Positions 5,944 through 52,082 of a stretch of DNA of 59,335 nucleotides are shown here, one piece after another. The position numbers were made by a program, and so were the translations under genes. Where the stretch lies: assembly GCA_964643135.1 (NCBI GenBank), contig CAZXPC010000005.1:1-59335 (forward strand). The letters run 5' to 3'. Under the pieces are notes generated by a model that saw only the letters and a program-made list of their open reading frames with translations, ran no database searches and was not told where the DNA came from. This DNA comes from an uncultured Candidatus Saccharibacteria bacterium (GTDB lineage: Bacteria; Patescibacteriota; Minisyncoccia; UBA6257; Colwellbacteraceae). Position 1 is the first letter of the stretch. Each line of letters starts with the position of its first letter.

Positions 5944-5946
5944 TGT

Positions 5947-5976
5947 TTGACAAGAGGTGCGGCTTGGCGTTAGTAT
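5947..5976 (+). promoter_or_regulatory. sigma70-type promoter TTGACA-17/18-TAGTAT
   Basis: TTGACA 5947-5952, TAGTAT 5971-5976, directly after the uvrC stop. Confidence 0.6.
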
Positions 5977-5995
5977 CTCGGTCTGGAGCGATCTC

Positions 5996-6208
5996 ATGAC
6001 TCTGACTTTCAAGGTTGAAGGAACCTCTGAGAACGATACTGAAGCTCGAAGGTTCGCTCTTGAGCGGGCCGCTGAGATCGAGGGGAAGGGATTCACAGTT
6101 AGCGAGCTCACTCACACGACTCGCAACGCGGCCCGAGGTCCTGGACGCATCCACGTCTACACTTTCGTCGGCGAAGCCAAGAAGTCCGACGAACCCGAGA
6201 AGCCCTGA
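5996..6208 (+). CDS. hypothetical 70-aa protein (GC-rich block A)
   Basis: The track ORF 5957..6208 starts upstream of the -10 element. The ATG at 5996 is preceded by GGAG. GC-rich coding; terminator follows. Confidence 0.55.
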   Translation: MTLTFKVEGTSENDTEARRFALERAAEIEGKGFTVSELTHTTRNAARGPGRIHVYTFVGEAKKSDEPEKP

Positions 6209-6223
6209 GCCTCCTCTCTGAAC

Positions 6224-6250
6224 GGATCCCACAAGGATCCTCTTTTTATT
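6224..6250 (+). terminator. intrinsic terminator
   Basis: GGATCC-CACAA-GGATCC hairpin followed by TCTTTTTATTTTT. Confidence 0.7.
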
Positions 6251-6251
6251 T

Positions 6252-6279
6252 TTGACTTCATTTAGTTTTCTGATAAACT
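6252..6279 (+). promoter_or_regulatory. promoter TTGACT-16-(TGa)TAAACT
   Basis: TTGACT 6252-6257; extended -10 TGATAAACT 6271-6279. Confidence 0.5.
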
Positions 6280-6288
6280 AGAAAAGTT

Positions 6289-6375
6289 ATGTTAAGGACA
6301 ACAGCATTATCCATGATGATGTCGACCGGCTCTATGATGGGCTTATTTAACATTGTCGGGGATAAAGCTGAGTAA
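6289..6375 (+). CDS. mini-ORF, 28 aa MLRTTALSMMMSTGSMMGLFNIVGDKAE
   Basis: Own promoter and terminator. The 5' end ATGTTAAGGA and the terminator are shared with the mini-ORF at 6716. Below the ORF-track size cutoff. Confidence 0.4.
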   Translation: MLRTTALSMMMSTGSMMGLFNIVGDKAE

Positions 6376-6402
6376 GCAGACTAATAGTATTCTAAAGCTC
6401 AA

Positions 6403-6428
6403 CCTCCCCGGCAACGGGGAGGTTTTTG
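6403..6428 (+). terminator. intrinsic terminator
   Basis: CCTCCCCG-GCAA-CGGGGAGG followed by TTTTTG. Confidence 0.75.
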
Positions 6429-6447
6429 TTCTTTAATGCCTCGACCT

Positions 6448-6484
6448 CAGCTCTTAGTCAGTACGGTGTATTGATTAAGAGCTG
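6448..6484 (+). other. 9-bp perfect hairpin without T-run
   Basis: CAGCTCTTA (6448-6456) pairs with TAAGAGCTG (6476-6484); same position in the module as hairpin 6849-6876. Confidence 0.5.
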
Positions 6485-6511
6485 CGGTTAAGAACATCGC
6501 AGCAGGGTCAG

Positions 6512-6622
6512 ATGGTAGCGATGACGAACACAGTAAACAATGAAGCGTCCATGGCGCCCTCGGCTGAAGCTCCCGTGCGTACGTGCGCTGTCTGCGGACG
6601 GCCACTGCCCTGCGGAGGATAG
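6512..6622 (+). CDS. mini-ORF, 36 aa, Cys-rich C-terminus (..RTCAVCGRPLPCGG)
   Basis: GC-rich ORF ending inside the terminator hairpin. The opposite-strand track ORF 6447..6665 has no signals. Confidence 0.3.
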   Translation: MVAMTNTVNNEASMAPSAEAPVRTCAVCGRPLPCGG

Positions 6623-6660
6623 GGGAGATTGGTTTTCTAAACTTTTCTCCCCATTTTTTA
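6622..6660 (+). terminator. intrinsic terminator
   Basis: GGGGAGA..TCTCCCC stem (6622-6652) followed by ATTTTTTA. Confidence 0.55.
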
Positions 6661-6675
6661 TTCACTTTTACGATA

Positions 6676-6703
6676 TTTACATTTTGTTTATTTTTGCTAT
6701 ACT
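6676..6703 (+). promoter_or_regulatory. promoter TTTACA-16-TATACT
   Basis: TTTACA 6676-6681, TATACT 6698-6703. Confidence 0.5.
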
Positions 6704-6715
6704 AAAAAAGTAAAC

Positions 6716-6787
6716 ATGTTAAGGAATCTATCAAACCTCGTCGCGATTATTTGCCCAATTATTAAGGGCTATTCTTGTCGGGGTTAG
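6716..6787 (+). CDS. mini-ORF, 23 aa MLRNLSNLVAIICPIIKGYSCRG
   Basis: Paralogous cassette to 6289-6428: same ATGTTAAGGA start and the same CTCCCCGGCAAGGGGAG terminator. Confidence 0.4.
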   Translation: MLRNLSNLVAIICPIIKGYSCRG

Positions 6788-6820
6788 ATAATCTGCAGAA
6801 ATATAAGAATTATCTAAGAT

Positions 6821-6848
6821 CTCCCCGGCAAGGGGAGGTTTCTTGTTT
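6821..6848 (+). terminator. intrinsic terminator
   Basis: CTCCCC-GGCAA-GGGGAG followed by GTTTCTTGTTT. Confidence 0.65.
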
Positions 6849-6987: not shown

Positions 6988-7299
6988 ATGCGGGCGTGGA
7001 CGACGGAACGGGTGTTGACCAGCTCGGGGAGGTCTGAGAACGTGGATTACGACCACGCAGCGACCGAGTTCAGGCTGAAGGGTGACATGGAGACCGGCTA
7101 CTGGGAAGCGCTCAGGTTCTTCCCTGACAGAGTCAATCGCAACGAGGCCGAGCGATGGGCCAAGTCGCTTAGCACCGCGCCTCTTGACCTCATCCCTACT
7201 GAGGACGGGGCAAGGGCTGTCGTGAGGATCACTTCTCCGGAAGCGATCGAACTTGCCAAGAAGACGCTTGGCATCACGATGTCGGTCTCTCGCGCCTAG
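6988..7299 (+). CDS. hypothetical protein, up to 103 aa (GC-rich block B); start uncertain
   Basis: + strand supported by the downstream terminator. Alternative GTG start near 7035 after GGGGAGG. The antisense 175-aa track ORF is judged a shadow. Confidence 0.45.
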   Translation: MRAWTTERVLTSSGRSENVDYDHAATEFRLKGDMETGYWEALRFFPDRVNRNEAERWAKSLSTAPLDLIPTEDGARAVVRITSPEAIELAKKTLGITMSVSRA

Positions 7300-8583: not shown

Positions 8584-9090
8584 CTACTGGACGGGGACTT
8601 CATCCTCCTCATCGAGGGCTGCGGTGGCCGCGGCCTTCTCAGAGTCTTCTGTGATCTTCTCCTGCGCGATCTCACCGAGCTCTTCGCGGATGGCGGCGCA
8701 GTGCGCGATGCATTGCGTAGCGGCCGTGATCGCCTCGGCGGTGATGTTGCGGGTCTGCGGATACTCGGCGTCGGAAGCGAGGAGCTTGGGGACGACCCTC
8801 TTGCTCAATGCCTTCATCGCTTCCGTGATCCGCTCGTGCACCATCACGACGAAATCGTGGGAGACTTCGCCCTTGCAGAATGCCTTCTCGATCTCTGGAG
8901 CAGAGCCCCGGATTTCGTCGAGGTATTCGTCGATGAGCTGGAGGCTCCTTCGCGCTTCACTCATGTAGCGCTGGGGCGTCGCTGCATTGGGCTTGAAGAT
9001 CTTGCCCTCGAGAATGCAGGTGTTGTTGACGACCTTCTCGAGTAGGCCGACAACCTTCTTGGGTGTTGAGATTTCGTCGATCTTCGTCAT
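8584..9090 (-). CDS. hypothetical 168-aa helical protein (GC-rich block C)
   Basis: The track ORF extends to 9180, but the TTGACA-17-CATAAT promoter lies inside that extension, so the start is taken at ATG 9090 (MTKIDEIS..). Confidence 0.55.
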   Translation of the reverse strand: MTKIDEISTPKKVVGLLEKVVNNTCILEGKIFKPNAATPQRYMSEARRSLQLIDEYLDEIRGSAPEIEKAFCKGEVSHDFVVMVHERITEAMKALSKRVVPKLLASDAEYPQTRNITAEAITAATQCIAHCAAIREELGEIAQEKITEDSEKAAATAALDEEDEVPVQ

Positions 9091-9179: not shown

Positions 9180-12100
9180 ATGCTCCCGAAAATATTTAAT
9201 AAGCTATATAGCGCCCTTAATATCGAGCAAAAAGAGGCGGTCGATGCGATCGACGGGCCGGTTATGGTGATTGCTGGGCCGGGCACCGGTAAAACGCAGA
9301 TTCTGACGCTACGCATTGCCAATATTTTGAGAGAGACCGATACCAACCCGGATAACATTTTGGCGCTCACTTTTACCGAGTCGGCGGCTTATTCGATGCG
9401 TAAGAGGCTGGTCGACATCATTGGCTCAGCGGCTTATCGCGTTAATATCAGCACCTTTCATGGCTTCTGCAACGAAATCATCAAACGTTTCCCGGAAGAT
9501 TTTCCGAGGATCATTGCGAGCACAAACATTACCGAAGTCGACCAGATCCGCATTGTCGAAGATATTATTGAGAACACGAAGTTGAAGGATTTGAAACCAT
9601 ATGGCGACAAATTTTACTATCTTTATCCCATCATCCGCTCGATCAGCGACCTTAAGCGCGAAAATATTGATACTAAAGAGTTTGAGAAGTTGTTAAGAAT
9701 ACAAGAGAGAAAACTTCACCCAGTTAAATCCGCCAGGGGATCAGCGGTCTTGGAGAAACTTTTCAGCAAAAATAAAGAGCTGGTTAAGGTCTATAAAGCT
9801 TACGAGAAAGAGTTGGCCAAGGCCAAGCTTTATGATTATGACGATATGATTATGGAAGTTTATCGGACATTATCCAAGAACCATGATCTTCTAGCGACGC
9901 TCCAGGAAGAATATCAATACATTTTGGTTGACGAACACCAAGACACCAACAACGCGCAGAACAAAGTGGTAGAGCTGCTGGCTAAATTTCATGATAATCC
10001 GAATATATTCGTGGTGGGGGACGAGAAGCAGGCAATTTTTAGGTTTCAAGGCGCCTCACTCGAAAATTTTCTCTATTTTAAAAAGTTATACAAGAAAGCC
10101 AAGATAATTACGCTCGAAAAGAATTATCGATCCAGCCAGAATATTTTGGACTCGGCTCATTCGCTGATCTCGAAGAGCGTCGATGGTTTTGAAGAGTTCC
10201 GCAAGAATCTGAGGGCTGCAGAAGATGAAGACAGCGATGAGGAGCAGAAAATCAGTGTTTATTCATTTTCTAAGGAGATGTCAGAATACGAATTTATCGC
10301 GCGCGATATCCGCACCAAGGTAAAGGCTGGGGTTCTGCCGGAGGAGATCGCCGTGCTCTATCGTGAGAACAATGATTCACAGGCCATCGCTAAAGTTTTA
10401 GATCGGCACGGAGTGGATTACATAATCGAATCTAACGAGGATATTTTATCTGACAACAATCTCAATAAACTGTTTTTAATTTTGAAGGCAGTTAACAACT
10501 TTGGCAGTAAGGCTGATTTTATCAATATGGCCCATGTTGATTTCTTAACCATCGATTCTCTGGACCTCTATCGCTTAATTAATTCAGATCAGAGAGATTT
10601 CTTTGGGTTGCTGAAGAATAAATTAGCGCTCAAGAGGCTTGGTGTTGAAACCCCGGAAGCTATTTCAAGGATTTATGAAAAATTAGCCGGCTGGTACAAG
10701 ACCGAAAAGAATAAGAACCTCCTGGAATTTTTTGAGATAATTGTTCGTGAATCAGGCTATTTGGATTATATTCTGTTGCTTAATTCTTCGGCCGAGGACT
10801 TGGAGAGGCTCAATAGTTTCTTTGATGAAATAAAGTCGCTTATCGAAGCGCATCGAGACGTCCGGTTAAAGGATCTGATCAAACACTTGGACTTGCTTAA
10901 AGATCATGGAGTATCGGTTAAGGCGGAAATTGGTCAAAGTAAGTCCGGAAAATCAGGCAAGGTCAGATTAATGACGGCGCACCGATCAAAAGGGTTGGAG
11001 TTTGATTACGTTTACATAATAAAAGCCTATGATGGCCACTGGGGGAATAAGCGGAAGCCGAATCCGCTCAAGCTCGCGCTGAATTTAGAGAGCTTAGCTA
11101 ACTCCGACACCTTGGCTGACGAGCGCCGGCTTTTTTACGTCGCTTTAACTCGTGCCAGGATTGGCGTCATGATAACTTACGCGACCGAGGGCAAAAATGG
11201 CATGCAGTTGCCTAGCCAATTTATTGAAGAAATTGATAAAGCTTTAGTTGATTTTAGAGATGGCGCGGCTTATGAAAAGGAATTTGCCGGTAGCCAGAGC
11301 CGACAGAATCATTTTAAAGAAGTTCAGAGCAAAGCAGCGCCGCTTAAAGACAAAGAATATCTGAACGGCTTATTTTTAGATCATGGCTTGTCGGTCACAG
11401 CGCTCAATAATTATCTAGAGTGTCCGTGGCGATATTTCTATAACAATTTGGTGCGGATACCGACGGCGATCGAAAATAGCCAGATGTATGGCATCGCACT
11501 TCACGAGACTTTGAAATATTTTTTTGATAAATATAAAACGAGCGGCGAAGGAAGTAAAAAACTTCTGCTCGAACTCTTAGATAAGAATTTCAAGAAACAG
11601 CCGTTTAGCAAAAAAGATTTTGATGTGTTTTATGAACGCGCTAAGAGGTCCATCTCAGGCTATTATGATGAATATTCAAGGTTCTGGTCTAGGAATATTT
11701 TGAACGAATTTAATATCAAGGGGGTTTTGCTGGAGGATAAGATTCACCCGGTTAAATCCGCCAAGGGCGGTGCGGAGCAATTTAACCGGGTAAAAATCAA
11801 CGGCAAAATCGACAAGATTGAGATTTTGGATTCGAAAAGCGATGCTAATGAAGTAATTGTTTATGACTATAAGACTGCGAAACCAAAGAGCCGCAACGCA
11901 ATTGAGGGCAAAACGAGAAGTTCCAAAAATAACCAACAGGGAAATTACAAGCGCCAGTTGGTTTTCTATAAACTATTACTCAACTTATACGACAACAATA
12001 AATATAGGATGCAGAAAGGCGTGATTGATTTCTTGGAGCCGGACGAACGCGGCCGCTATAAACGTGAGGCTTTTGAAATAACCGATACGGAAGTCGCCGA

Positions 12101-12222: not shown

Positions 12223-12242
12223 AGAGGACTTGATTATCCTCT
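12223..12242 (-). terminator. intrinsic terminator of the block D operon
   Basis: minus strand: AGAGGA-8nt-TCCTCT followed by TCTTTTTTT; the stop codon lies in the loop. Confidence 0.6.
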
Positions 12243-12587
12243 CGCGGCTGCCAGGAGTTTGTCCTGAACTTCGCGGACAACGGGGTCGTTGGCGTGGAAC
12301 ACGTGGTCGCATGTTTCGCCGGCATCGAAGAGTGAGCTGGCCGATCGGTTTTCATCCATGAGGAAATCGATCAGCGCTTCACTTTCGGCGTATCCGACGT
12401 CGGTTTGCCTTGCTTTCGACATTACGAAAGCGTGGCTGACCTCGTCTGCGATGTTGGTCAGGATGATTCGTAGCCAAGACCAGTCTGCCCACTTTGGCCG
12501 GTGCTTGATCGAGCATTCTGCGCACTTGCGGCCCTGGTAGTCGTTGCGCTTGATCCGGCGCACGTAATTGAACCATGATTCGGTCAT
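12234..12587 (-). CDS. hypothetical 117-aa protein (GC-rich block D)
   Basis: SD GAGGTG upstream of the ATG; starts 9 nt after the upstream mini-ORF stop. Confidence 0.6.
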   Translation of the reverse strand: MTESWFNYVRRIKRNDYQGRKCAECSIKHRPKWADWSWLRIILTNIADEVSHAFVMSKARQTDVGYAESEALIDFLMDENRSASSLFDAGETCDHVFHANDPVVREVQDKLLAAARG

Positions 12588-12596: not shown

Positions 12597-12740
12597 TCAC
12601 AGATTCGACCGAATCATGGCTGACCGCTGGCGCTCCCCGTCTCGCGCTTTCTTGCGACCTTCTTCCTCGCCAACTTTGTAGGTGACGAAGAGGGAGAGAA
12701 GCCAAACGATGCCGAGGATGATCCACCAAAGAACTGTCAT
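12597..12740 (-). CDS. 47-aa single-TM mini-protein MTVLWWIILGIVWLLSLFVTYKV..
   Basis: hydrophobic N-terminus and basic tail; GAGG upstream; not in the ORF track (under 60 aa). Confidence 0.5.
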   Translation of the reverse strand: MTVLWWIILGIVWLLSLFVTYKVGEEEGRKKARDGERQRSAMIRSNL

Positions 12741-15258: not shown

Positions 15259-16077
15259 ATGAACACCAAATCGCCAACACTTTTTGAGGCGAAAGTTCAC
15301 CCGGTTAAATCCGCCAAAGGCGGTGCGAAGCAATTTAACCGGGTAAAAATCGCTTTTTTCGACATCGATGGCACGATTTTCCGCTCGAGCCTTTTAATCG
15401 AACTTATTAACGGCCTGGTTGAAAGCGGAATTTTCCCCAAGAAGGCGGCTCATGAAATTATCGGCAAGAAGATAGCCTGGCTCGACCGCACCGGCCGGTA
15501 TGACGAATATCTATATCAAGTTGTGCTGGTTCACCTCAAATATATCAAGGGTTGCCGCTGGGAAGATGTGAAGCGAGTGGTTGAGATCGTGATCAAAGAA
15601 GAAGGCGACATGGTTTATCGCTACACTCGCGATTTGATTAAGAAACTTAAGAGCGAGGGTTATTACATGGTCACGATTTCGGGTTCGCCGATTTATATGG
15701 TGCAGGAATTTGCCAAACACATGGGTTTCAACAGCGCTTTTGGCCAGATTTTGGGGATAGAGAATGGAATTTTTACAGGTGAGATTGTTAACAAGAATTT
15801 TCGGGATAAAGAAAGCATCATCAAAGAATTCCTGGCGACCTCCGGCATTGATGCAGACATGGAAAATTCGATTGCTGTCGGCGACACTGACAATGATATC
15901 CCGATGCTTAAGATGGTCGGTCGCCCGATCGCGTTTAACCCCAACCGCGAACTGGCTCTTTATGCCAGAAAAGAAAATTGGGAGATTGTGGTTGAGAGGA
16001 AAGATTCGATCTACCAAGTTAAAGATTTTGAGTTGCTGGATTATGAGGGAGTGGACGAAAAGAAGCGCGAGTTCTAA
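15259..16077 (+). CDS. HAD-IB family hydrolase (SerB-like) with a repeat-derived N-terminal extension
   Basis: FFDIDGTIF motif I follows the repeat copy directly; GDTDNDIPM motif IV. Confidence 0.85.
   Translation: MNTKSPTLFEAKVHPVKSAKGGAKQFNRVKIAFFDIDGTIFRSSLLIELINGLVESGIFPKKAAHEIIGKKIAWLDRTGRYDEYLYQVVLVHLKYIKGCRWEDVKRVVEIVIKEEGDMVYRYTRDLIKKLKSEGYYMVTISGSPIYMVQEFAKHMGFNSAFGQILGIENGIFTGEIVNKNFRDKESIIKEFLATSGIDADMENSIAVGDTDNDIPMLKMVGRPIAFNPNRELALYARKENWEIVVERKDSIYQVKDFELLDYEGVDEKKREF
15296..15351 (+). repeat. 56-nt nested-palindromic element inserted in frame (copy in the HAD hydrolase)
   Basis: 54/56 identical to 11743-11798; same frame (VHPVKSAKGGAKQFNRVKI). Confidence 0.9.
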
Positions 16078-16552
16078 ATTTGCCCGCCCTCCGAGAAACC
16101 CAAATCTCCTCCTCGCTTAGCCCTCTCCTCGCGACCTAAATCTTCCCCGCCTCCGAACTCGCTTCCGCCCCTCGGAACCAGGATATTTTTAGTACTCTAA
16201 AAATTCCCTACCGCTCGGCTGCCCGCCTCCGCAGTTTCCTCAGAACGAAACCGAGTTCTCGGCTCTGTAGAGCTTCTAGGCAAGCCCCCAATCCTCCCAC
16301 AGCAAGCATCGCGGAAGAATAGTCATAAATAGCCGTATCGAGCGAGGAAAGGATACTGGAACTGGAGCCGAGAATGAATTAGTAAATGAATTCCGGGCGG
16401 AATTCCAGAGGTTCCCCGAGCGAGACTAGGACTATTTATCTATTCTGTAGCGCCGCTTGCGAGGAGAGGGTGGGGGTGAGCTGGGACGAGTGGTAAGAGA
16501 GATACAGGCGAGGAGCGCGACACTGATGACGAGGCTGAGGTTTTGTGCGATA
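16078..16552. repeat. ~470-bp noncoding element with pyrimidine-rich left arm and purine-rich right arm
   Basis: No ORF over 60 aa in 16120-16432. 12-bp inverted repeat CCCTCTCCTCGC (16121-16132) / GCGAGGAGAGGG (16458-16469). Its ends match both window termini. Confidence 0.6.
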
Positions 16553-19733: not shown

Positions 19734-20282
19734 TCAGATTGGGATTCTTTTCAACGGGTCAAAGTTGCCAGATTTGACCTCGACGATCCAAAACCCAGCG
19801 TAGATTACTCCTCCGGCTAGCGCGATCCACATGACTGGGCCGCGCAGGTCACCTGAGAAGAGGTTCCATGCACACATGACGGCTGCTCCGACTCCAGCAC
19901 CAAAGTAGATAAGGTGCAGGATGCCGGCCAAGCTCATTTTGCCGGGTGCGGGGAAGCCGTAGTCCGGTCGGTGGTTTGCGCCCATGCAGATCCATGCGAA
20001 GACTGCTGCAAGGACTATGCCGATTCCGAGCGCCCACCAGATGTTGGAGGGCTTATCCCTCGCCAGGTGCACAAAGGCAGTGACGATGAGGGGTACTCCC
20101 ATCAAGTCTGCCCAGGTCATGGTCCAGAAATCCTGAATGTACAGGAATTTCTGGTTCGTGCCCGGGATGATGGAGCCGCGCGGCGGCAAGTTTCTGTCCG
20201 TCGACTGTGCCAGGAGCATTGCCCCGAAGCAGACGAGGTTCGCGAGGATCACCGAAACGAGAATGGTTGTGGAGAACTGCAA
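19734..20282 (-). CDS. hypothetical multi-TM membrane protein (GC-rich block E)
   Basis: 182 aa, about five hydrophobic segments; TTG start in the track, start uncertain. Confidence 0.55.
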   Translation of the reverse strand: MQFSTTILVSVILANLVCFGAMLLAQSTDRNLPPRGSIIPGTNQKFLYIQDFWTMTWADLMGVPLIVTAFVHLARDKPSNIWWALGIGIVLAAVFAWICMGANHRPDYGFPAPGKMSLAGILHLIYFGAGVGAAVMCAWNLFSGDLRGPVMWIALAGGVIYAGFWIVEVKSGNFDPLKRIPI

Positions 20283-37617: not shown

Positions 37618-37629
37618 CTAACAAAAAAT

Positions 37630-37653
37630 CGGCACCTTGCGTGCCGGTTTTGT
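37630..37653 (+). terminator. intrinsic terminator after tRNA-Glu
   Basis: CGGCAC-CTTGC-GTGCCG followed by GTTTTGT. Confidence 0.7.
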
Positions 37654-37660
37654 GTTAGCT

Positions 37661-37775: not shown

Positions 37776-37784
37776 ATAGCGAAG

Positions 37785-37803
37785 CTTCCCTCTGGGACTA
37801 CTA
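37785..37803 (+). repeat. duplicated 3' end of tRNA-Glu (att-like)
   Basis: TTCCCTCTGGGACTACTA versus tRNA 3' end TTCCCCGTGGGACTACTA (37603-37620); 11-nt exact TGGGACTACTA. Confidence 0.6.
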
Positions 37804-37869: not shown

Positions 37870-38136
37870 ATGCCAAAAGCACAAGTTCCCGAATTGGGTG
37901 CAACAGTTGCGATCCGTGACAGTAGCGAAAGAGACATCATCGCCAAGGCAGTCGTACGGCGCAGCGGCAACACGGAGATCGAGATCGAAGATCTCCAGAC
38001 CCACCAGAAAACCGAGTTCGCACTCTTCGAAGGTGGATGGAAGATGCTCTTCCGCGGCATGGGCGGTGAACGCTGCTTCAGCCAACGGGCGCCTTTCTAC
38101 ACGATCGATACGCTCGCAGTCACCACACAGACCTAA
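37870..38136 (+). CDS. hypothetical 88-aa protein (GC-rich block H)
   Basis: ORF with upstream promoter; an antisense ORF of similar size exists, so moderate confidence. Confidence 0.45.
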   Translation: MPKAQVPELGATVAIRDSSERDIIAKAVVRRSGNTEIEIEDLQTHQKTEFALFEGGWKMLFRGMGGERCFSQRAPFYTIDTLAVTTQT

Positions 38137-38302: not shown

Positions 38303-38773
38303 TTACCGATGCGGCACCGTTCTATTCGGAGGAGCCGTTTCCGAGAGGATCGCGATCGGGATCTCTGCCGGCGTTGTACTGGCTTCTTGCTTCTCTCTCA
38401 GGATCTCGGCTACTCGATACATGTCGAGTGCGAATTTCCCGCGGAGTTCGATCTCGGCTGGATCGCCTGGGTAGGCGAGACGCAGAGCTCGAATGATGTC
38501 AGGTTCGACATCCCTCCAGTCGAAGGCATCGCCCTTCATCACGAACACGGCGTATCGGTTGATCCAGATGTCGATGCCGGACACTGCGAGCAGGGCTCCG
38601 ACGACCAACGAGCCGGCTTGCGTGAAAGGCAATGACTTGTCGATGGCGGTCCAATTGCGTATCGACGCATCAGGGACGATCTCGGCAGTCAGAGAGTAGA
38701 CGCGAGTGTCTTCGTCGCCATGCACTGCTTCAATGGCGTCGATCCTTTTGGGGACTTTGGAGATAGGGCTCAA
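38303..38773 (-). CDS. hypothetical ~156-aa protein (GC-rich block H)
   Basis: the TTGACA-17-CATCAT promoter lies inside the track ORF extension; start taken at the TTG after GAGGT; minus-strand terminator with T8 downstream. Confidence 0.5.
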   Translation of the reverse strand: MSPISKVPKRIDAIEAVHGDEDTRVYSLTAEIVPDASIRNWTAIDKSLPFTQAGSLVVGALLAVSGIDIWINRYAVFVMKGDAFDWRDVEPDIIRALRLAYPGDPAEIELRGKFALDMYRVAEILREKQEASTTPAEIPIAILSETAPPNRTVPHR

Positions 38774-38965: not shown

Positions 38966-39220
38966 ATGGTGTACGTTATCGGGAGCGCTTGTGTCGGAGT
39001 GAAGAGTCACGATTGCGTGGACGTATGTCCGGTTGACTGCATCCACCCCAAGAAGGGAGACCCAAAGTTCTCGGAGGCTCCGCAACTCTACATCAACCCT
39101 GTTGAATGCATCAGTTGTGGACACTGCGAGGCGGTTTGCCCCGTCGAAGCCATTACCCACGAGAAGAAGGCCTCGCCTGAAGATATCAAGAACAACGAGG
39201 ACTACTTCAAGGAGCGCTGA
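38966..39220 (+). CDS. 7Fe-type ferredoxin ([3Fe-4S] plus [4Fe-4S])
   Basis: 84 aa; Cx7Cx3CP (CVGVKSHDCVDVCP) and CxxCxxCx3CP (CISCGHCEAVCP). Confidence 0.85.
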   Translation: MVYVIGSACVGVKSHDCVDVCPVDCIHPKKGDPKFSEAPQLYINPVECISCGHCEAVCPVEAITHEKKASPEDIKNNEDYFKER

Positions 39221-39229: not shown

Positions 39230-39514
39230 ATGGCTCATATCAAACTCGATCCTGACGTGAAGGGGATGGATGCTTCTCCGGAAGCCAAGCAGACGATCAT
39301 GAGGTTGCGAAGAGGCATCAGGAAGCATCGCGACAAGGATGAGAACGCCCGTTGCTGGCATGCCGACTTGGAGCTCTACGCTCTGTTGCCGGAGGAAAAG
39401 CCGGCCGGCAGAATGGATCAACCGAAAGAGACTCTTCTCGGTAACTGTGAGCGGTACATTGATCGGCAAAAGTGCGGTGGATGCCCGATCGCCGATCGGC
39501 TCGGCCTCACATGA
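39230..39514 (+). CDS. hypothetical 94-aa protein co-transcribed with the ferredoxin
   Basis: starts 10 nt after the ferredoxin stop, GAGG upstream; strong terminator follows. Confidence 0.55.
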   Translation: MAHIKLDPDVKGMDASPEAKQTIMRLRRGIRKHRDKDENARCWHADLELYALLPEEKPAGRMDQPKETLLGNCERYIDRQKCGGCPIADRLGLT

Positions 39515-39531: not shown

Positions 39532-39557
39532 GGTCGCAGAAATGCGGCCTCTTTTTT
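39532..39557 (+). terminator. intrinsic terminator
   Basis: GGTCGCA-GAAA-TGCGGCC followed by TCTTTTTT. Confidence 0.8.
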
Positions 39558-39911: not shown

Positions 39912-39942
39912 TTGACAATGGTGTGATTTTGAGGGATGATAT
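39912..39942 (+). promoter_or_regulatory. promoter TTGACA with weak -10 (GATGAT/TGATAT)
   Basis: TTGACA 39912-39917 directly after the stop of 39633..39905. Confidence 0.4.
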
Positions 39943-39972
39943 GAGGCTTTCGAGCAAAATGGGGAACTCGAT

Positions 39973-40350
39973 ATGAGAGAACAGACGTTTACCAAGGCTC
40001 GGTTGGAGCAAGTCGCTCAGAAGTTGGAGAGCGGCACTCTCCACATGAGCAAAGAAGACGCCATGGAGTACGCGAGGCTGGTCCAGGAGACTTTTGCCGG
40101 ACAGGCCGAAGTCCCGGACGACTCTCTCGATGCCGATAAGCGGAGCGTTTTCTACGCGCTGGAGGGTCAGGGGATCTTGACCTATCGCAGGGAAGAGCGC
40201 AACATCGAGTCGGGCGAGAAGCGTCGGTTCTTTTACTGGCGCGTCAACTGGGCGGGCATCGGCGAAGCTCATCAGAGCCAGAGTCGCCCGGATCCGGACT
40301 CAGATGTCTACGCCGACCTGCCACAGAGCGCCTGGCGTCACGGCGTCTAG
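39973..40350 (+). CDS. hypothetical 125-aa protein (GC-rich block I)
   Basis: GGGGA upstream of the ATG; terminator CTAGC..GCTAG followed by TCTTTTTT downstream. Confidence 0.55.
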   Translation: MREQTFTKARLEQVAQKLESGTLHMSKEDAMEYARLVQETFAGQAEVPDDSLDADKRSVFYALEGQGILTYRREERNIESGEKRRFFYWRVNWAGIGEAHQSQSRPDPDSDVYADLPQSAWRHGV

Positions 40351-40456
40351 GCCGAAAGCGCCAGCGGCTAGCGGTTGATCTGCTAGTCTTTTTTATTGAG
40401 GGGAATCAATTAATCCACAGCCCGATTTTTTTAGATATATGTTATAATCATTCGAA

Positions 40457-40624
40457 ATGAAAGTAATACATGAAATTGGCAAGGCATTTGTGGCCCAACC
40501 GCCCGAATATTATCGGGTGAAGATCGGCAAACACGTGGCATCCGGCGCCTCCGCTTTTGTCGCCGGGATGGCCGTGGCCAGCATACTTTGGTTCGCCGCT
40601 TACTACATCAGATACTGGCTCTAG
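40457..40624 (+). CDS. 55-aa membrane-anchored mini-protein
   Basis: MKVIHEIGKAF..ASAFVAGMAVASILWFAAYYIRYWL; abuts the next ORF; replaces antisense track ORF 40448..40639. Confidence 0.4.
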   Translation: MKVIHEIGKAFVAQPPEYYRVKIGKHVASGASAFVAGMAVASILWFAAYYIRYWL

Positions 40625-40625
40625 G

Positions 40626-40949
40626 ATGACGAGAGACAAGCTAATTATTATTCCGTTTACGCTAACTGTTGCGATCTTGATCGTCAGTATTTTTTTGAGC
40701 CTTAACTTTGCTAATTATACCGGGAAGCTGATTGTTAATTACGATGCGGCTGATAACCCGGTTTTGGGCGGATATTCGACAATTTTGTCGGTGTTGGCGA
40801 TTTTTGCCGTGATCGCATGTATAAATTACTTACTCACCTTGGTTCTTTACAACCGTGAAAAATTCCTAGCTCATATCTTATCTTGCGCCACTCCGGTCAT
40901 TGGTATTCTGCTCTTTTTTGTCCTGGGCGCAATAAAGTCTCTTAATTAA
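40626..40949 (+). CDS. 107-aa multi-TM membrane protein
   Basis: start at the internal ATG (MTRDKLIIIPF..). Confidence 0.55.
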   Translation: MTRDKLIIIPFTLTVAILIVSIFLSLNFANYTGKLIVNYDAADNPVLGGYSTILSVLAIFAVIACINYLLTLVLYNREKFLAHILSCATPVIGILLFFVLGAIKSLN

Positions 40950-41656: not shown

Positions 41657-41785
41657 ATGGCAGATGTACGTTCCATTCAGGTCCGCTTGCCGGGCTCCCC
41701 GCCGGAGAAAGACGAGTTCGTTCCGTACGGCGTCGCGCGTTCCGAGACGATCGTTCCGAAGCCGACCTTCGACGGTGACGAATGA
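41657..41785 (+). CDS. 42-aa mini-ORF (GC-rich block J)
   Basis: MADVRSIQVRLPGSPPEKDEFVPYGVARSETIVPKPTFDGDE; the + strand is supported by promoter and terminator. Confidence 0.35.
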   Translation: MADVRSIQVRLPGSPPEKDEFVPYGVARSETIVPKPTFDGDE

Positions 41786-41904
41786 TGGCATTCCTCCCGG
41801 GCGACATGCCGCACCCGGGCGACCCTCCTGACCATGTTCCGAACGGGCCGCCGCAGGACCCCGGTCAAGGGACCGATGAAGAAGACGACGATGACGACGA
41901 ATAA
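41782..41904 (+). CDS. 40-aa mini-ORF with poly-acidic tail, ATGA-overlapped with the previous ORF
   Basis: MMAFLPGDMPHPGDPPDHVPNGPPQDPGQGTDEEDDDDDE. Confidence 0.35.
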   Translation: MMAFLPGDMPHPGDPPDHVPNGPPQDPGQGTDEEDDDDDE

Positions 41905-41961
41905 GGCAGAGTGTCCCAGTAGCTCCCGCGAGCTCATCGGACCCTCTGCCCCATTTTTTTT
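41905..41961 (+). terminator. strong intrinsic terminator
   Basis: GGCAGAGTGTCC..GGACCCTCTGCC followed by CCATTTTTTTT. Confidence 0.8.
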
Positions 41962-45470: not shown

Positions 45471-45878
45471 TCAGCTTGGCGGCCCGACGGTGGTCTCCGG
45501 CGGCCAATCCAGTTCACCGCGAGCCAGACTCTCGAGAAGCTCTTTGCGAGGTTCAGCGAGCTTTTTCCGGAGCTCGTCGAGTCTCTCCTGTTTGGCCCTA
45601 CAGATGTGTTCCGTGGGGTTCGTGCCGAATCCCGGTTTGGCAAGGAGATACTTGAGACACTCGGGGCATTGCTTCGCTTTCCTGGCTTGAATGCTCTTCA
45701 CTGCTCCGCAATCCTCCATGGCGCAGATCGCGAGCGTGATCACGTTGCCGTCGGCCTGGCGAATGACGTGCACTGAGTGAGGGCTGAGGCCCGGGCATTT
45801 CCCGACGCATTCGAAGAGGTTCTGAAGGTCCTCCGGCAGTTCGCTCACGAGTTCGTCGAGCTGTTCGTCATCGGGCAT
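45471..45878 (-). CDS. hypothetical 135-aa Cys-containing protein (GC-rich block K)
   Basis: ATG 45878 preceded by AGGAGA and TTGACG-17-TATAAA; the track ORF extension upstream crosses the promoter. Confidence 0.55.
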   Translation of the reverse strand: MPDDEQLDELVSELPEDLQNLFECVGKCPGLSPHSVHVIRQADGNVITLAICAMEDCGAVKSIQARKAKQCPECLKYLLAKPGFGTNPTEHICRAKQERLDELRKKLAEPRKELLESLARGELDWPPETTVGPPS

Positions 45879-45948: not shown

Positions 45949-46152
45949 ATGCACGGCAAAGGAATTAGCAGCGTAATCGCCAGTCTTGGCGAAGAGTTTG
46001 ACGCAGGAGCTCGAGAATCAGTCCAGATCGAGATCGTCAGCAACGAGCCTAAGGCCTTGCCCACATGCCTCGAATGCGGGCGTGACCTTGTCCTTCTAGG
46101 CGGGCGGCTGGCCTGTCTCCGGAGAAAAGGAGGCTGCGGCTTCCGCGGCTAG
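45949..46152 (+). CDS. 67-aa zinc-ribbon-like protein (GC-rich block K)
   Basis: perfect SD AGGAGG 6 nt upstream of the ATG; CLEC..x15..C..x7..C pattern. Confidence 0.6.
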   Translation: MHGKGISSVIASLGEEFDAGARESVQIEIVSNEPKALPTCLECGRDLVLLGGRLACLRRKGGCGFRG

Positions 46153-48709: not shown

Positions 48710-48716
48710 CATTTAA

Positions 48717-49661
48717 ATGGCAGACAATAATATATTGCTTAATAGAACTGAGGCGGTCTCGGATGTCGATGTTTCAATTGTTAAATTGTTTTCTTTTGTC
48801 GCGGTGTCGGCTTTGTCTGCGCTCGCGGCCGGCTATTATATCGCCACAGCTGTAACCCCATCGGGCATACTTATGGGGTTGATCACGATTTCTTTGTTCT
48901 GCGTTTTATTTGCTCTGCAGTCTTTTTTCATAAAAAGCCGGTGGCGGGGGTTAGTTGCGACAGCGATTGAATCTTTGGCGATGATGATGCCGATACTGGC
49001 TATATTTAAGGACAATCTTTCTCTATATTTCTTGCTGGCCTATGCCGTCCTCGTCATCATACTTTTTTACGGTTATGACTCCGGACGCCACGTGCTTCAA
49101 GAATCGCTTAAGATCCCTTTCTGGAGAACTTGTCACCACGTTCTGGCTAAAGCGATACCGGCTGTGCTTATCTTTGTGTTTATTGTTTACGCCTTTATCG
49201 CCAACAAGACCGTTGCCGCGGAGAACGCCAACCTCCTCTACGAGCACACCATTGTCCCGATAGCCAGAACGAGCATTTCTGATTTCAATTCTGGCATGTC
49301 GGCTGATGATGCGTTGGGCAGAATCGCTGATAAGCAGGGCATTACCGAGCCCCAGAAAAGCGCCTCGGTTGCTAACGTCGATAAATTGATCAGTTCATAT
49401 GACTTTAAAACCAACGAGCCTATTGGAACGGCCATCTATGATTTCTTTGTTGTGAAATTGCAGAGTCCTAACTTTTTGGTCAAGTTCTATTTCGCGTTTA
49501 TTTTGATCGCCCTAATCTGGTTCGTGGTAAAATCCATCGCCTTAATCCTTTATATTCCTCTCGAAGCTTTCGCATTAATACTTTATGAGATCTTGATCGC
49601 TACGAATTTTATTGCCATTCAGTACGAATCAAGGAGCAAGGAGATCATCCTCCTTAAATAG
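48717..49661 (+). CDS. 314-aa multi-TM membrane protein between dnaK and dnaJ
   Basis: at least 6 hydrophobic segments; backbone-like GC. Confidence 0.65.
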   Translation: MADNNILLNRTEAVSDVDVSIVKLFSFVAVSALSALAAGYYIATAVTPSGILMGLITISLFCVLFALQSFFIKSRWRGLVATAIESLAMMMPILAIFKDNLSLYFLLAYAVLVIILFYGYDSGRHVLQESLKIPFWRTCHHVLAKAIPAVLIFVFIVYAFIANKTVAAENANLLYEHTIVPIARTSISDFNSGMSADDALGRIADKQGITEPQKSASVANVDKLISSYDFKTNEPIGTAIYDFFVVKLQSPNFLVKFYFAFILIALIWFVVKSIALILYIPLEAFALILYEILIATNFIAIQYESRSKEIILLK

Positions 49662-49687
49662 GAGTCGAGACAATCAAAAATTAGAAG

Positions 49688-50803
49688 ATGAGCGAAGATT
49701 TTTACAAGGTTTTGGGCGTCGGCAAGTCAGCTTCGGCTGATGAGATTAAGGCGGCTTATCGAAAGCTGGCGCACAAATATCACCCGGACAAATCGGGCGG
49801 CGACGAAAAGAAGTTTAAAGAAATAAATGAGGCCTATCAGGTTCTTTCTAATACTGAAAAGCGCGCTCAATATGATCGGTTCGGCAAGAATTTTGCCGGC
49901 TTCAACGCCGGGGCGGGAGCGAACGCCGGGCAAGGCTTCGGCGGTTTTGGCGGATTCGACCAGTCTGGTTTCGGCGGCGATTGGAATATGAATTTTGGCG
50001 GCCAAGACATGGGAGACCTGCAGGACATTCTGGAATCAATGTTTGGTATGAGCGGCGGGGGCGCGGGCCGGACTCGCCGGCGCACGTATAAACGAGGCGG
50101 CGATTTGGAGATGAAAGTTGATGTCACTCTTGAGGAGGCTAAGTCAGGCAAAAAGATAGAGACCAAGTTCGAAACATTTATCCAATGCGGCGTCTGTCAC
50201 GGCGTAGGTTATGACGAGAAAGCGGGCATGGATGAGTGTTCACAATGCAACGGCCGAGGGGAAATCAAGGAGGAACGCCGGAGCTTCTTCGGAAATTTTT
50301 CGCAGATTGTAACCTGCAAGAAATGCAACGGTGTCGGCAAGATCCCCAGAAAACAATGCGCAACCTGCAAAGGCGCAGGCCGAGTCCACGGGGAGCGCGG
50401 CATTGTAATTGAAGTCCGCCCGGGCGTGGAAGACGGGCAGATAATCAAAATTAAGGGCATGGGAGAGGCGGGCGAACACGCTATGGAGGCGGGGGATTTA
50501 TATGTGCGAGTCCACGTGAAGCCGAATTCGCACTTTGAAAGAAAGGGCAGTGATATTTACATTAATGTGCCGGTCAGCTTAACTGACGCGGCCTTAGGTC
50601 GCCGCAAAGAAGTTAAAAATCTTGGCGGTAAAATAATCCATTTTGAAATTCCACCCGGCTTTGATCTGCGCGACGACTTGCGCATCAAGGGCGAAGGCAT
50701 GACTAGCTCGGGCGATCTAGTCTTGCGATTCGAAATCAAGACGCCTAAAAACCTGAGCGCCAAAGCCAAGCACCTGCTTGAGGATTTGGAGAAAGAGTTG
50801 TAA
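49688..50803 (+). CDS. dnaJ: molecular chaperone DnaJ
   Basis: J domain HPD, G/F region, four CxxCxGxG repeats. Confidence 0.97.
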   Translation: MSEDFYKVLGVGKSASADEIKAAYRKLAHKYHPDKSGGDEKKFKEINEAYQVLSNTEKRAQYDRFGKNFAGFNAGAGANAGQGFGGFGGFDQSGFGGDWNMNFGGQDMGDLQDILESMFGMSGGGAGRTRRRTYKRGGDLEMKVDVTLEEAKSGKKIETKFETFIQCGVCHGVGYDEKAGMDECSQCNGRGEIKEERRSFFGNFSQIVTCKKCNGVGKIPRKQCATCKGAGRVHGERGIVIEVRPGVEDGQIIKIKGMGEAGEHAMEAGDLYVRVHVKPNSHFERKGSDIYINVPVSLTDAALGRRKEVKNLGGKIIHFEIPPGFDLRDDLRIKGEGMTSSGDLVLRFEIKTPKNLSAKAKHLLEDLEKEL

Positions 50804-50807
50804 CTTG

Positions 50808-50878
50808 TGCCTTCACATGGAATCGAACCATGGTCAAGTGCTTAAAAGGCACCTGCTCTACCATTGAGCTATGAAGGC
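50808..50878 (-). tRNA. tRNA-Lys (anticodon UUU)
   Basis: hand-folded: acceptor GCCTTCA/TGAAGGC, anticodon loop CTTTTAA, T-arm CATGG-TTCGATT-CCATG, no encoded CCA. Confidence 0.9.
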
Positions 50879-50936
50879 GATAGACACTTATTTAACAATA
50901 TTTCGAAAAAATAATCTACCCCTCGTCATTTTTAGA

Positions 50937-50975
50937 ATAAAAAAAGAGGGCGGGTCCTTTTGATTGGACCTGCCC
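50937..50975 (-). terminator. intrinsic terminator of the block L gene
   Basis: minus strand: GGGCAGGTCC..GGACCCGCCC followed by TCTTTTTT. Confidence 0.75.
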
Positions 50976-51006
50976 AGATCTCGAGGTCGGACCTCGAGGG
51001 ATCGCT

Positions 51007-51969
51007 TCAGGTTCGAGAAGCGATGAACTCGCGATGCCTCTTGTCCGATTCGCTGGCCGCGTTGATGAGGCCAAGCGCCGAGTTCAGAAGCTTGAGGGTT
51101 TCCAGAGTGCTATCCCGGCTCCCTCCGTTCTTGGCCTTGGCTTCATTGAATTTTCCACGAGCTTCGGAAAGCAGCTTCTCGGCCCGTTGCGACGGGTGCG
51201 GCGATGCTCTGACGGTCTCTTCGCCCTTTTCGAGCAATTCGGGGATCGTGTCGAGATCCTCGGCGATCTTCTTTTTCGCCTCAGCTACTTCATGGATGTC
51301 CGATTGAGCCTTCTTCTCGACTGAGTCCAGCCAATCGTTCACGCCCTTCAAGCTGGCCGCGACTTCGATCCAATCCACGTTGGACGGTTCATCCTGAAGA
51401 CGGCCTTCCACTTGGATGTAGAACTCCGTCTGTTCAGCGAATCGGCGCTTAACATCGTAGGAGACGTCCGCATGATTCACCGTTTCCCGAAGGGCGGTGA
51501 TCCGCACGGCGGTTGTCCCGAAGAGCTTGGGAGCATTGGTCCGAGCTTCTCGGAATCTCGTCGGCAAACTCAAGCTTTCACTGAGGCGGGTCAGCACTGT
51601 GAAAGCATGGCCATAGCTCCTATCAATGTTGCGTTGCAGATCGTAGAGCTCGCGCCGGTGGATTGCTCTTTCATATCTTTCGATCGATTCTTCCCAGGCC
51701 TTGTAGCTAGGGCAGGCGCTCGAGAGGATACGGTGTTCTATTTCGTACCAGCGGTATTGGGAGAGTTCGGGCCTCAACGTTTCCAGGATGTCTTTTGCCT
51801 GTGGGTAGAGCGCCCTGATCTCGGCGACCGTGGCTTTGAACGGTTGGAGCCAGGATCGGGCAGCGGCCCGCTCCTTTCTTGCCGCACGAACGTTCAGCGT
51901 GATCTTGATCGCGATCATCGCCGCGATGACAGTCGCGATGCCTGCAATGATGAATCCGAGTAGGTCCAT
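51007..51969 (-). CDS. hypothetical 320-aa protein, N-terminal TM plus long helical/coiled-coil region (GC-rich block L)
   Basis: start at the internal ATG (MDLLGFIIAGIATVIAAMIAI..) preceded by AAGGAAG. Confidence 0.6.
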   Translation of the reverse strand: MDLLGFIIAGIATVIAAMIAIKITLNVRAARKERAAARSWLQPFKATVAEIRALYPQAKDILETLRPELSQYRWYEIEHRILSSACPSYKAWEESIERYERAIHRRELYDLQRNIDRSYGHAFTVLTRLSESLSLPTRFREARTNAPKLFGTTAVRITALRETVNHADVSYDVKRRFAEQTEFYIQVEGRLQDEPSNVDWIEVAASLKGVNDWLDSVEKKAQSDIHEVAEAKKKIAEDLDTIPELLEKGEETVRASPHPSQRAEKLLSEARGKFNEAKAKNGGSRDSTLETLKLLNSALGLINAASESDKRHREFIASRT

Positions 51970-52082
51970 TTTGACACTTCCTTGTGGGGTACTGCTACAG
52001 ATGAAATACAAGCATAGGATAAGCCGAGCGTCAACTTTGATTTTTATAGGACATAGTGTAAACTTTCTTCCATATTGTTTTT

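Follow-up and report, generated by a model that had tools for sequence, protein, structure and literature searches.

Putative GC-rich orphan-gene cassettes at recurring sites between housekeeping genes of an uncultured Parcubacteria bacterium

The window analysed here is a 59,335-nt stretch of metagenome-derived DNA (contig CAZXPC010000005.1 of assembly GCA_964643135.1, forward strand) from an uncultured, small-genomed member of the Paceibacteria/Parcubacteria, within the candidate phyla radiation. Its backbone consists of plain housekeeping genes, together with PilC, pilins and a prepilin peptidase (parts of a type IV pilus), and is interrupted at 12–13 sites by blocks of higher guanine-plus-cytosine (GC) content, each 0.3–1.8 kb long and holding one to four genes, which are the subject of this analysis. 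Twelve of these blocks (A to L) had been singled out in a reading of the letters alone, hereafter the sequence-only reading, as self-contained expression cassettes, each in a spacer between housekeeping genes. This placement is borne out, the flanks being uvrC, ychF, a UvrD/PD-(D/E)XK helicase gene, folA, xseA, rplJ, mraZ, tRNA-Glu, the L21 gene, cysS, recR, grpE, dnaJ and secD. As that reading had also stated, no integrase, transposase or phage gene was found among the genes of the window.

Pooled, the blocks have a GC of 0.553 (range 0.519–0.588 over the twelve) compared to 0.462 for the remainder and 0.478 for the whole window, and at 10,084 bp they make up 17% of it, in agreement with the earlier estimate of about 10 kb or one sixth; the three spot counts on which that estimate's contrast had been illustrated (36/60, 38/60 and 23/60) were all exact. 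Among 300-bp windows, mean GC is 0.558 for those fully inside blocks and 0.464 for those outside (standard deviation 0.044). The blocks hold about 18 plausible open reading frames (ORFs) with GC of 0.54–0.64, compared to 0.39–0.52 for 52 backbone genes (0.574 ± 0.030, n = 18, vs 0.459 ± 0.033, n = 52; Mann-Whitney p = 2e-10). First, second and third codon positions all differ (GC1 0.58 vs 0.49, GC2 0.435 vs 0.358, GC3 0.70 vs 0.53), the GC3 contrast being partly circular since frames were chosen partly by GC3, while the contrast in total GC is not circular. Every block has one reading frame that yields a protein-like ORF, its GC3 well in excess of its GC2, and the predicted products are enriched in C, W, R, H, P, A and E and depleted in K, N, Y, I and F. 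Outside the blocks, GC is 0.41 in non-coding DNA, and local GC peaks of 0.55–0.58 also occur inside ordinary backbone genes. The original list of GC-rich stretches was not complete, a thirteenth having been missed at 16078–16552. The parts of the blocks, and this additional stretch, are listed below (L082 is a locus from a relative, described later).

5947–5976, + strand: promoter-like site of cassette A, TTGACA-18-TAGTAT, beginning 4 nt past the uvrC stop
5996–6208, + strand: ORF A, 70 aa, GC-rich, with GGAG upstream; positional ortholog of L082 8503–8694
6224–6240, + strand: terminator-like hairpin of A, its T-run entering the next -35 box (TTGACT at 6252)
6988–7299, + strand: ORF B, 103 aa, GC3 0.77; positional ortholog of L082 9657–9914; called as a gene in public assemblies
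8584–9090, - strand: ORF C, about 168 aa, GC3 about 0.74; no homolog in this spacer in relatives
9135–9107, - strand: promoter match of ORF C, TTGACA-17-CATAAT, just upstream of C and the best match of the region
12234–12587, - strand: ORF D1, 117 aa, with GAGG upstream and a terminator-like hairpin at 12243–12222
12597–12740, - strand: ORF D2, 47 aa, a small membrane-like peptide
16078–16552, no strand assigned: thirteenth GC-rich stretch (475 bp), GC 0.53, without a convincing ORF; first half C-rich, second half G-rich
19734–20282, - strand: ORF E, 182 aa, GC3 0.73, multi-helix membrane-like, with promoter-like sites at 20334–20299
28321–28581, + strand: ORF F1, 86 aa, paralog of F2 (29% identity, E = 3e-9)
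28609–28661, + strand: F1 terminator hairpin fused to the F2 promoter, TTGACA-17-TAGTAT; a second copy of the module lies at 29016–29066
28681–28995, + strand: ORF F2, 104 aa from a start preceded by a Shine-Dalgarno-like motif (109 aa as called publicly)
29016–29066, + strand: terminator of F2 joined to the promoter of rplJ; a weak L10-leader match comes next (29060–29185)
32643–33713, - strand: ORF G, 356 aa, GC 0.64, GC3 0.82, divergent from mraZ
37786–37803, + strand: direct repeat of the tRNA-Glu 3' end at block H's left edge (16/18 bases match; chance expectation 0.01)
37870–38136, + strand: ORF H1, 88 aa, block H
38303–38773, - strand: ORF H2, about 156 aa, with a promoter-like site at 38820–38792
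38966–39220, + strand: ORF H3, 84 aa, a 7Fe-type ferredoxin and the sole block product with a known family
39230–39514, + strand: ORF H4, 94 aa, with a terminator-like hairpin at 39532–39549
39912–40388, + strand: cassette I, with a promoter-like site (39912–39940), an ORF (39973–40350, 125 aa, GC3 0.75) and a terminator-like hairpin (40366–40388)
41677–41937, - strand: ORF J, 86 aa, GC3 0.82, with a hydrophobic helix at the N-terminus
45471–45878, - strand: ORF K1, about 135 aa, with Cys pairs (CxxC-like) and AGGAG upstream
45949–46152, + strand: ORF K2, 67 aa, Zn-ribbon-like, with GGAGG upstream
51007–51969, - strand: ORF L, 320 aa, with a membrane helix at the N-terminus and then a long helical stretch; adjoins tRNA-Lys

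The ORFs on the minus strand are thus C, D1, D2, E, G, H2, J, K1 and L. Block B, which had been taken as a single unit, is heterogeneous, in that it does contain a GC-rich ORF but also two AT-rich mini-cassettes. The latter (6252–6430 and 6676–6847) each have a promoter-like site and a very short ORF (28 aa at 6290–6376 and 23 aa at 6717–6788, both starting MLR), with terminator hairpins that are near-identical (CTCCCCGGCAAxGGGGAGGTT), and they look like paralogous small-peptide genes.

The sequence-only reading held that most blocks carry their own promoter and terminator, a slightly generous statement: predicted signals bear it out for A, C, E, F1, F2, H2/H4 and I, and no promoter match was found for D, G, K or L. 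In a consensus scan the top sigma-70-like matches precede A, C, E, F2, H2 and I; F1 and, on the + strand, the J site have weaker ones. Hairpins with T-runs follow A, D1, F1, F2, H4 and I, and motifs resembling a Shine-Dalgarno sequence precede most block ORFs once their start codons are refined. The same module is present at both the F1/F2 and the F2/rplJ junction, a terminator whose T-run leads directly into TTGACA-17-TAGTAT, and F1 and F2 form a tandem duplication of ORF, terminator and promoter. At the second of these junctions, which the sequence-only reading had cited as an example of fusion to host signals, the F2 terminator runs straight into the predicted rplJ promoter. Between that promoter and the rplJ start lies the L10-leader match, which is sub-threshold (34 bits vs a gathering score of 44, E = 0.08).

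The left edge of block H is close to tRNA-Glu (37546–37618), whose 3'-end repeat bounds only ~165 bp and is not accompanied by an integrase; tRNA-Lys (50807–50878), next to L, is without any such repeat. An inverted copy resembling a tRNA T-arm (37660–37679) also lies downstream of tRNA-Glu (region 37597–37803). tRNA-linked genomic islands insert at the 3' end of a tRNA gene, carry an integrase and are bounded by a direct repeat of that end. The tRNA-Glu repeats may be the scar of an old tRNA-targeted integration.

With respect to their products, the blocks encode orphans apart from one 7Fe ferredoxin, as had been proposed. Searches of all 18 block ORFs against Pfam, PHROGs and PADLOC returned only the ferredoxin H3, for which the PHROGs match is to generic ferredoxin, and sub-threshold matches to DUF6015, TBCC_N, Exonuc_VII_S and DUF3974 were not used. 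H3 has the cysteine pattern Cx7Cx3CP plus CxxCxxCx3CP, matches Fer4 families at E = 2e-9 and aligns over its full length with the solved 7Fe ferredoxins 1BC6, 1BQX, 2V2K and 1H98. The other products are small helical, Cys-rich or Zn-ribbon-like, and membrane proteins; eight of the block products have been called as genes in public assemblies. In a set of about 15 billion proteins clustered at 90% identity, eight products other than G each stand alone as a singleton, a status that excludes near-identical copies only, and distant homologs of A–F and H–L were sought in Pfam, PHROGs and PADLOC and in the loci of relatives (by BLAST, tblastn and hidden Markov model (HMM) searches). ORF G matched only itself among 5.8 billion clusters and just two distant homologs among 1.84 billion representatives, neither of them in a GC-rich genome, and scans of IMG/VR with G and L found nothing. 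An AlphaFold2 model of G from a 3-sequence alignment reached a predicted local distance difference test (pLDDT) score of 52, and Foldseek found no match for it in the PDB below E = 1.

It could be argued that the blocks are not genes at all, being instead structured non-coding RNAs or chance ORFs in GC-rich spacer DNA, since GC-rich intergenic islands in genomes of lower GC are the classic signature of structured RNA and several of the ORFs are short enough to arise by chance at a GC of 0.57. The two halves of the ORF-less stretch 16078–16552 do pair over long range, and it folds somewhat better than its shuffles (z = -3.2 on the + strand and -2.9 on the - strand). However, no block contains an RNA gene according to Rfam (gathering thresholds, and also E <= 1) or ARAGORN, the whole window yielding only the two tRNAs and the weak L10 leader, and known non-coding RNAs were rejected as an explanation on these grounds; nor did the J block show an Rfam match or any alignment with the corresponding spacer of a relative (L090) when considered as a cysS leader or T-box. 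The ORFs are as long as 168–356 aa and have a strong codon-position pattern (GC3 0.63–0.82, above GC2), one product is a bona fide ferredoxin, Shine-Dalgarno-like motifs are present, and protein-level conservation is seen for A and B and, over the full length, for G (356 vs 354 aa). We consider an RNA or chance-ORF origin of the blocks highly improbable.

Relatives were found by searching a large protein collection with YchF and CysS, and their contigs were fetched. GTDB representative genomes searched with CysS were set aside as too distant (the closest are 48–53% identical and hold no block homologs), and a scan of JGI metagenomes with RplJ gave one 1-kb contig only. Three of the relatives (L082, L084 and L085), with YchF 82–88% and UvrA about 90% identical to those of the window, keep the order uvrA-uvrC-[gap]-ychF-[gap]-helicase-[gap]-folA-FAD oxidase-HAD, where FAD is flavin adenine dinucleotide. 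The same gaps in these genomes are occupied by small ORFs without a Pfam match, at GC of 0.52–0.63 and GC3 of 0.6–0.8, and GC-rich orphans occur also in L088, L090 and L092 (e.g. ORFs of 222, 294 and 265 aa, GC 0.62–0.64), so that across these six loci orphan GC is 0.52–0.64 compared to 0.38–0.46 for the backbone. Among about 90 loci, the window and its clade have the largest share of 300-bp windows with GC more than 0.10 above the median, with a positive skew, and the phenomenon thus belongs to the lineage and not to the contig alone.

Because this is a metagenome contig whose composition switches sharply at gene boundaries, chimeric joining of a low-GC genome with GC-richer DNA of other organisms, in assembly or binning, had to be considered; the sequence-only reading had argued against it, and the evidence agrees. 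An independent Logan assembly of run SRR8931234 contains a 10-kb contig identical across F, G, their junctions and flanks, further Logan contigs carry other block products, and the junctions are crossed by uninterrupted terminator and promoter signals. In relatives, which come from at least six other runs, GC-rich DNA likewise lies between core genes at the same sites. A literature search found no paper that cites the run or assembly accessions. We regard an artefact of this kind as scarcely credible.

Three of the cassettes have positional orthologs. ORF A is 48% identical (E = 4e-14) to the ORF directly after uvrC in L082, where the flanking UvrC is 76% identical, and ORF B is 35% identical (E = 8e-8) to the ORF directly before ychF in the same locus, where YchF is 88% identical. 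ORF G has a homolog, P0242, with 26–28% identity (E = 3e-26, 354 vs 356 aa, aligned from residue 1), which is divergent from mraZ in L092 just as G is in the window; the neighbouring MraZ, RsmH and penicillin-binding protein are 88%, 64% and 59% identical, respectively, and over all three cassettes the neighbours of the orthologs are 59–90% identical. P0242 has a GC of 0.59 and a GC3 of 0.73 in a backbone of 0.43–0.45. The second homolog of G belongs to an unrelated low-GC organism (L095) and has that organism's composition.

The other sites for which relatives are informative have different contents. No homologs of C or D were detectable in the same gaps of L082, L084 and L085, which hold other GC-rich ORFs, and the ORFs of the ychF-helicase, helicase-folA and L21-cysS spacers are unrelated between the window and L082, L084, L085 and L090. 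At the J site the gap between the L21 gene and cysS measures 28–37 bp in L088, L089, L091 and L098, and is filled by unrelated GC-rich DNA in L090; at the K site recR and grpE are only about 90 bp apart in L088 and L091, and 307 bp apart, with a 55-aa Zn-ribbon ORF between them, in L098; at the L site the relatives have dnaJ followed by an unrelated low-GC 735-aa ORF and not tRNA-Lys plus L. The thirteenth stretch is absent from L082, where the HAD gene and a conserved 73–76-aa gene lie only 12 bp apart. The clade's 128 GC-rich ORFs include no related pairs other than the positional orthologs (A, B and G) and F1/F2; with no family found at different loci, the cassettes were rejected as a multi-copy mobile family. 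The sites thus appear to be stable while their contents turn over, with A, B and G persisting as rapidly diverging orthologs, the C, D and J sites holding unrelated GC-rich ORFs in relatives, and the J, K and L sites empty or differently filled in more distant relatives.

The comparison of L088 and L098 gives a closer view of such a change. Over about 4.5 kb around murC-PPDK the two are 97–99% identical apart from one clean indel, which in L088 is a 900-bp insert (GC 0.60) with a 222-aa ORF (GC3 0.79), a -10 box of its own, a terminator and a new -35 box, and which in L098 corresponds to 30 bp. On its left side the insert joins within a promoter's -35 box, and no target duplication accompanies it. 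What is exchanged would be the cassette as a whole, from promoter to terminator. Elsewhere in the alignment (L088 790–11360) identity alternates between 97–99% and 62–86% in blocks of a few hundred bases to kilobases, swinging from 62% to 99% along 10 kb (e.g. NUDIX 75%, L21 98%), a pattern that looks like the recombination mosaic expected from frequent homologous recombination.

Two further observations concern the variable regions of the relatives. In L082 a DedA/VTT-like ORF downstream of ychF (11001–11570), with a homolog in L084, is called in the Logan contig L083, while the NCBI record of the L082 DNA annotates two short minus-strand ORFs at that position instead; the DNA of L082 and L083 is identical, only the gene calls differ, and a strain difference between them was rejected. 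In L090 (671–3380) a nucleotidyltransferase (KNTase_C) gene with a GC of 0.30 lies between orphan ORFs of 0.58 and 0.62 in a backbone of 0.41–0.46, so high- and low-GC outliers share one variable region there.

The question of why the cassettes are GC-rich can be approached through codon usage. In twofold codons ending in pyrimidines, C/(C+T) is 0.74 for the orphans of the window and 0.77 for those of the relatives, compared to 0.45 and 0.41 for the respective backbones; in those ending in purines, G/(A+G) is 0.64 and 0.67, compared to 0.50 and 0.39. The orphans of the window and of its relatives therefore share one codon regime, whatever the GC of the backbone around them. At conserved residues of the flanking orthologs, fourfold-site identity is 0.27–0.49 compared to 0.25–0.27 expected at saturation, and fourfold-site GC of G is 0.86 and 0.72 in the two genomes. 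That A, B and G are GC-rich in both genomes despite near-saturated synonymous sites in their neighbours indicates that recent import does not account for their composition, barring a renewed import into the same site; it is instead a property of the DNA that has been retained over long divergence. A, B and G at least appear to be old, fast-diverging residents and not recent imports. GC-rich stretches without ORFs (16078–16552, 6440–6660 and 37621–37785) speak against pure codon selection and for a cause at the DNA level.

A simpler cause would be that the cassettes are the least constrained sequences of the genome and have drifted to a GC-rich neutral equilibrium, conserved genes being held lower by their constraints. 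Fourfold changes in cysS, dnaB, recR and grpE of L088 and L098 run in that direction (53 AT-to-GC vs 29 GC-to-AT) and imply an equilibrium GC of about 0.65, compared to 0.50 at present and 0.67–0.70 in the orphans, although this is a lead only, as the changes were polarised by parsimony at equal site numbers against a distant outgroup (L091) and parsimony error is likely. Backbone GC3 also varies within the clade, from 0.43–0.45 in the relatives to 0.53 in the window and up to 0.68 in L097. However, synonymous sites of the backbone should then sit at the same equilibrium, and the low GC of non-coding DNA outside the blocks does not fit either. Evolutionary rate was rejected as a cause, since divergence among 31 backbone genes tracks neither GC (rho = 0.26, p = 0.15) nor GC3 (rho = 0.004), and very fast backbone genes remain low in GC, including LigT (26% identity, GC 0.45) and the membrane-protein ORFs at 48717–49661 (314 aa) and 40557–40949 (130 aa; 37–40% identity, GC 0.43–0.44). 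We therefore judge neutral drift of this kind improbable.

The sequence-only reading offered as one possibility the repeated acquisition of foreign, moron-like cassettes, which in its full form would have all blocks derive from a GC-richer pool (such as phages, plasmids or a host organism), with homologs at the same site explained by repeated import. Such a source would account for a composition distinct at all three codon positions and in amino acid use, for a single codon regime across the orphans of several genomes, as a common pool would give, and for the singleton status of all tested products; the absence of J, K and L between the same flanks in relatives, the recent 900-bp indel between L088 and L098, and the position of H and L beside tRNA genes, with the tRNA-Glu 3' end repeated at the edge of H, are also in its favour. 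However, library, cluster and IMG/VR searches found no donor, phage homolog or mobile-element gene, and PHROGs, PADLOC and IMG/VR gave no phage, defence or virus match. Recently transferred genes are recognised by closer homologs in an unrelated donor than in relatives, which is not what was found for G, neither of whose distant homologs is in a GC-rich genome. Moreover, no cassette family recurs at different loci among the 128 ORFs, A, B and G keep their sites and their GC across near-saturated synonymous divergence, the cassette promoters have the same form as the native rplJ promoter, and phage-derived orphans are usually GC-poorer than their hosts (PMC11293555). Of the proposal of repeated acquisition, the absences and the indel stand, while a donor is missing and A, B and G have homologs at the same sites with the same GC-rich composition, a pattern that the sequence-only reading had itself named as counting against acquisition. 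We consider import of all blocks rather unlikely. The data are better described by the second possibility that the same reading raised, a class of lineage-specific genes with a different compositional regime, given that the relatives' orphans share that regime, and the interpretation of that reading is supported in part.

On balance, we lean towards the view that the blocks are real accessory transcription units of a clade-wide class of short, GC-rich, very fast-evolving orphans, located in the gaps between core genes and turning over as whole cassettes. Several points weigh against it. The promoters and terminators of the cassettes are pattern matches, so the transcription units are predicted ones, and consensus scans detected no promoter match for D, G, K or L. 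No indel has been polarised, so gain was never separated from loss. The relatives cover part of the window, with block E covered by no relative locus, F and H by one (L092), in which they are absent or the region is rearranged, and I missing from what L090 and L092 cover of the region, which is partial and rearranged; the orthologs of A and B come from the closest relative, L082, only, an HMM search of L085 having been negative (E = 5–7). A composition that looks maintained could also result if the genes at one site were replaced again and again from an external GC-rich pool, and the GC bias of a recombination-linked process would be unusually large for bacteria. The causes that remain are either a DNA-level process tied to the sites or an unsampled GC-rich pool.

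If the blocks are accessory units of this kind, the main route of their exchange would be homologous recombination in the conserved flanks after uptake of DNA, as in the minimal mobile elements of Neisseria, and illegitimate recombination between the short terminator/promoter modules that bound the cassettes would probably add duplications and deletions. The route, which the sequence-only reading had called unknown, is plausibly an ordinary one, since mosaic identity is typical of homologous recombination and parts of a type IV pilus are encoded in the window. As for composition, a GC-biased process linked to recombination would be favoured over codon selection. In its strongest form, the single-gene cassettes at fixed sites would be a genome compartment of their own, and a site-linked process would actively keep the DNA of these hotspots GC-rich, at a strength undescribed in bacteria, with strongly GC-biased repair or conversion accompanying frequent recombination or uptake as a candidate; the same process would drive the very rapid divergence of the proteins. 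This we put forward as a speculation that is rather unlikely.

The minimal mobile elements of Neisseria, said to have been described by Saunders & Snyder in 2002 and Snyder et al. in 2007, reportedly occupy fixed sites between conserved genes with alternative, unrelated cassettes, lack an integrase, transposase or terminal repeats, and are thought to be exchanged by transformation and homologous recombination in their flanks. The window resembles them in its conserved sites with differing contents, in the mosaic identity of relatives, in its pilus genes and in the lack of transposase, integrase and terminal repeats, save for the tRNA-Glu 3'-end repeat beside H. Its cassettes differ in belonging to an uncultured bacterium of the candidate phyla radiation and in being compositionally uniform, GC-rich orphans, several of which persist as fast-diverging orthologs, and transfer is here only suggested, by the mosaic identity of L088 and L098 and the pilus genes. 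In function and dynamics the minimal mobile element would seem to be the closest known analogue.

Phage morons, as recounted for Juhala et al. in 2000 and Hendrix and colleagues, are said to be single genes of deviant composition with their own promoter and factor-independent terminator, inserted between conserved genes and present in some relatives and absent in others. Deviant GC (0.574 vs 0.459) and predicted promoters and terminators (A, C, E, F1, F2, H2/H4 and I) are shared with them; the cellular housekeeping context, the lack of phage genes and the lack of a PHROGs match beyond generic ferredoxin are not. The label 'moron-like' therefore fits the anatomy of the cassettes but not their context, because no phage is present. 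Integrons depend on a tyrosine-recombinase integrase and an attI site, and their promoterless cassettes are bounded by attC repeats in one array. Like integron cassettes, the units described here are small, mostly single-gene, of unknown function and variable in content; unlike them, they carry their own promoters and are scattered among core genes, with no integrase, attI or attC-like repeats, and no recurring inverted repeat was found at the cassette ends. Integrons are excluded because there is neither integrase nor attC and the cassettes carry promoters.

Integration hotspots, attributed to Oliveira, Touchon & Rocha in 2017, reportedly concentrate accessory genes in few core-gene intervals, many of them without recognisable mobile-element genes. 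As in such hotspots or genomic islets, accessory genes of the window are concentrated between core genes with no mobile-element genes, but its sites are very small (0.3–1.8 kb), very dense and occupied almost only by orphans of one composition. Genomic islands are on record for Patescibacteria, as are horizontal transfer and competence pili (PMC12455944). Species-specific orphans of bacteria are short, taxonomically restricted, without known domains and rare in the pangenome; in a large survey their GC followed that of the genome nearly one for one (rho = 0.96), and those that are phage-like or arose de novo had lower GC (Vakirlis et al. 2024; PMC11293555); unlike these, the orphans of the window are 11–12 points richer in GC and about 18 in GC3. 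We found no description in the literature of dense, GC-rich single-gene cassettes.

Other repeats lie elsewhere in the window. A 66-nt palindromic repeat (core CCCGGTTAAAT...ATTTAACCGGG) is present at 11733–11798 and 15286–15351, the copies being 91% identical, with a partial copy at 9715–9739. The copies lie in frame in the helicase ORF and at the FAD-oxidase/HAD junction, encoding 'HPVKSAKGGAxQFNRVK', and look like a small element of the miniature inverted-repeat transposable element (MITE) or repetitive extragenic palindromic (REP) type that is tolerated in coding sequence. AT-rich repeats of the types AACAAATAACTAATGACTAATAAC and GTTATCxGTTATTAGTTATG occur at 34501–34622, 35509–35608, 58218–58310 and 58834–58885, upstream of rsmH, ftsL and two pilin-like genes, where they may be shared regulatory or binding sites.

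Genomes of the candidate phyla radiation are tiny and thought to be streamlined, yet about one sixth of this housekeeping region consists of fast-changing orphans with predicted expression signals of their own, and a lineage-wide orphan class 11–12 GC points above its backbone goes against the rule that orphan GC equals or falls below genome GC (PMC11293555). The conserved sites with variable contents would be practical markers for strain typing, and their genes are candidates for interaction with hosts or phages. If the genes are imported, an unsampled GC-rich gene pool feeds these symbionts. If instead the composition is actively maintained, the clade would be a natural test of GC-biased conversion against selection in bacteria, and the GC-maintained hotspots would be loci of gene innovation or host interaction in an episymbiont.

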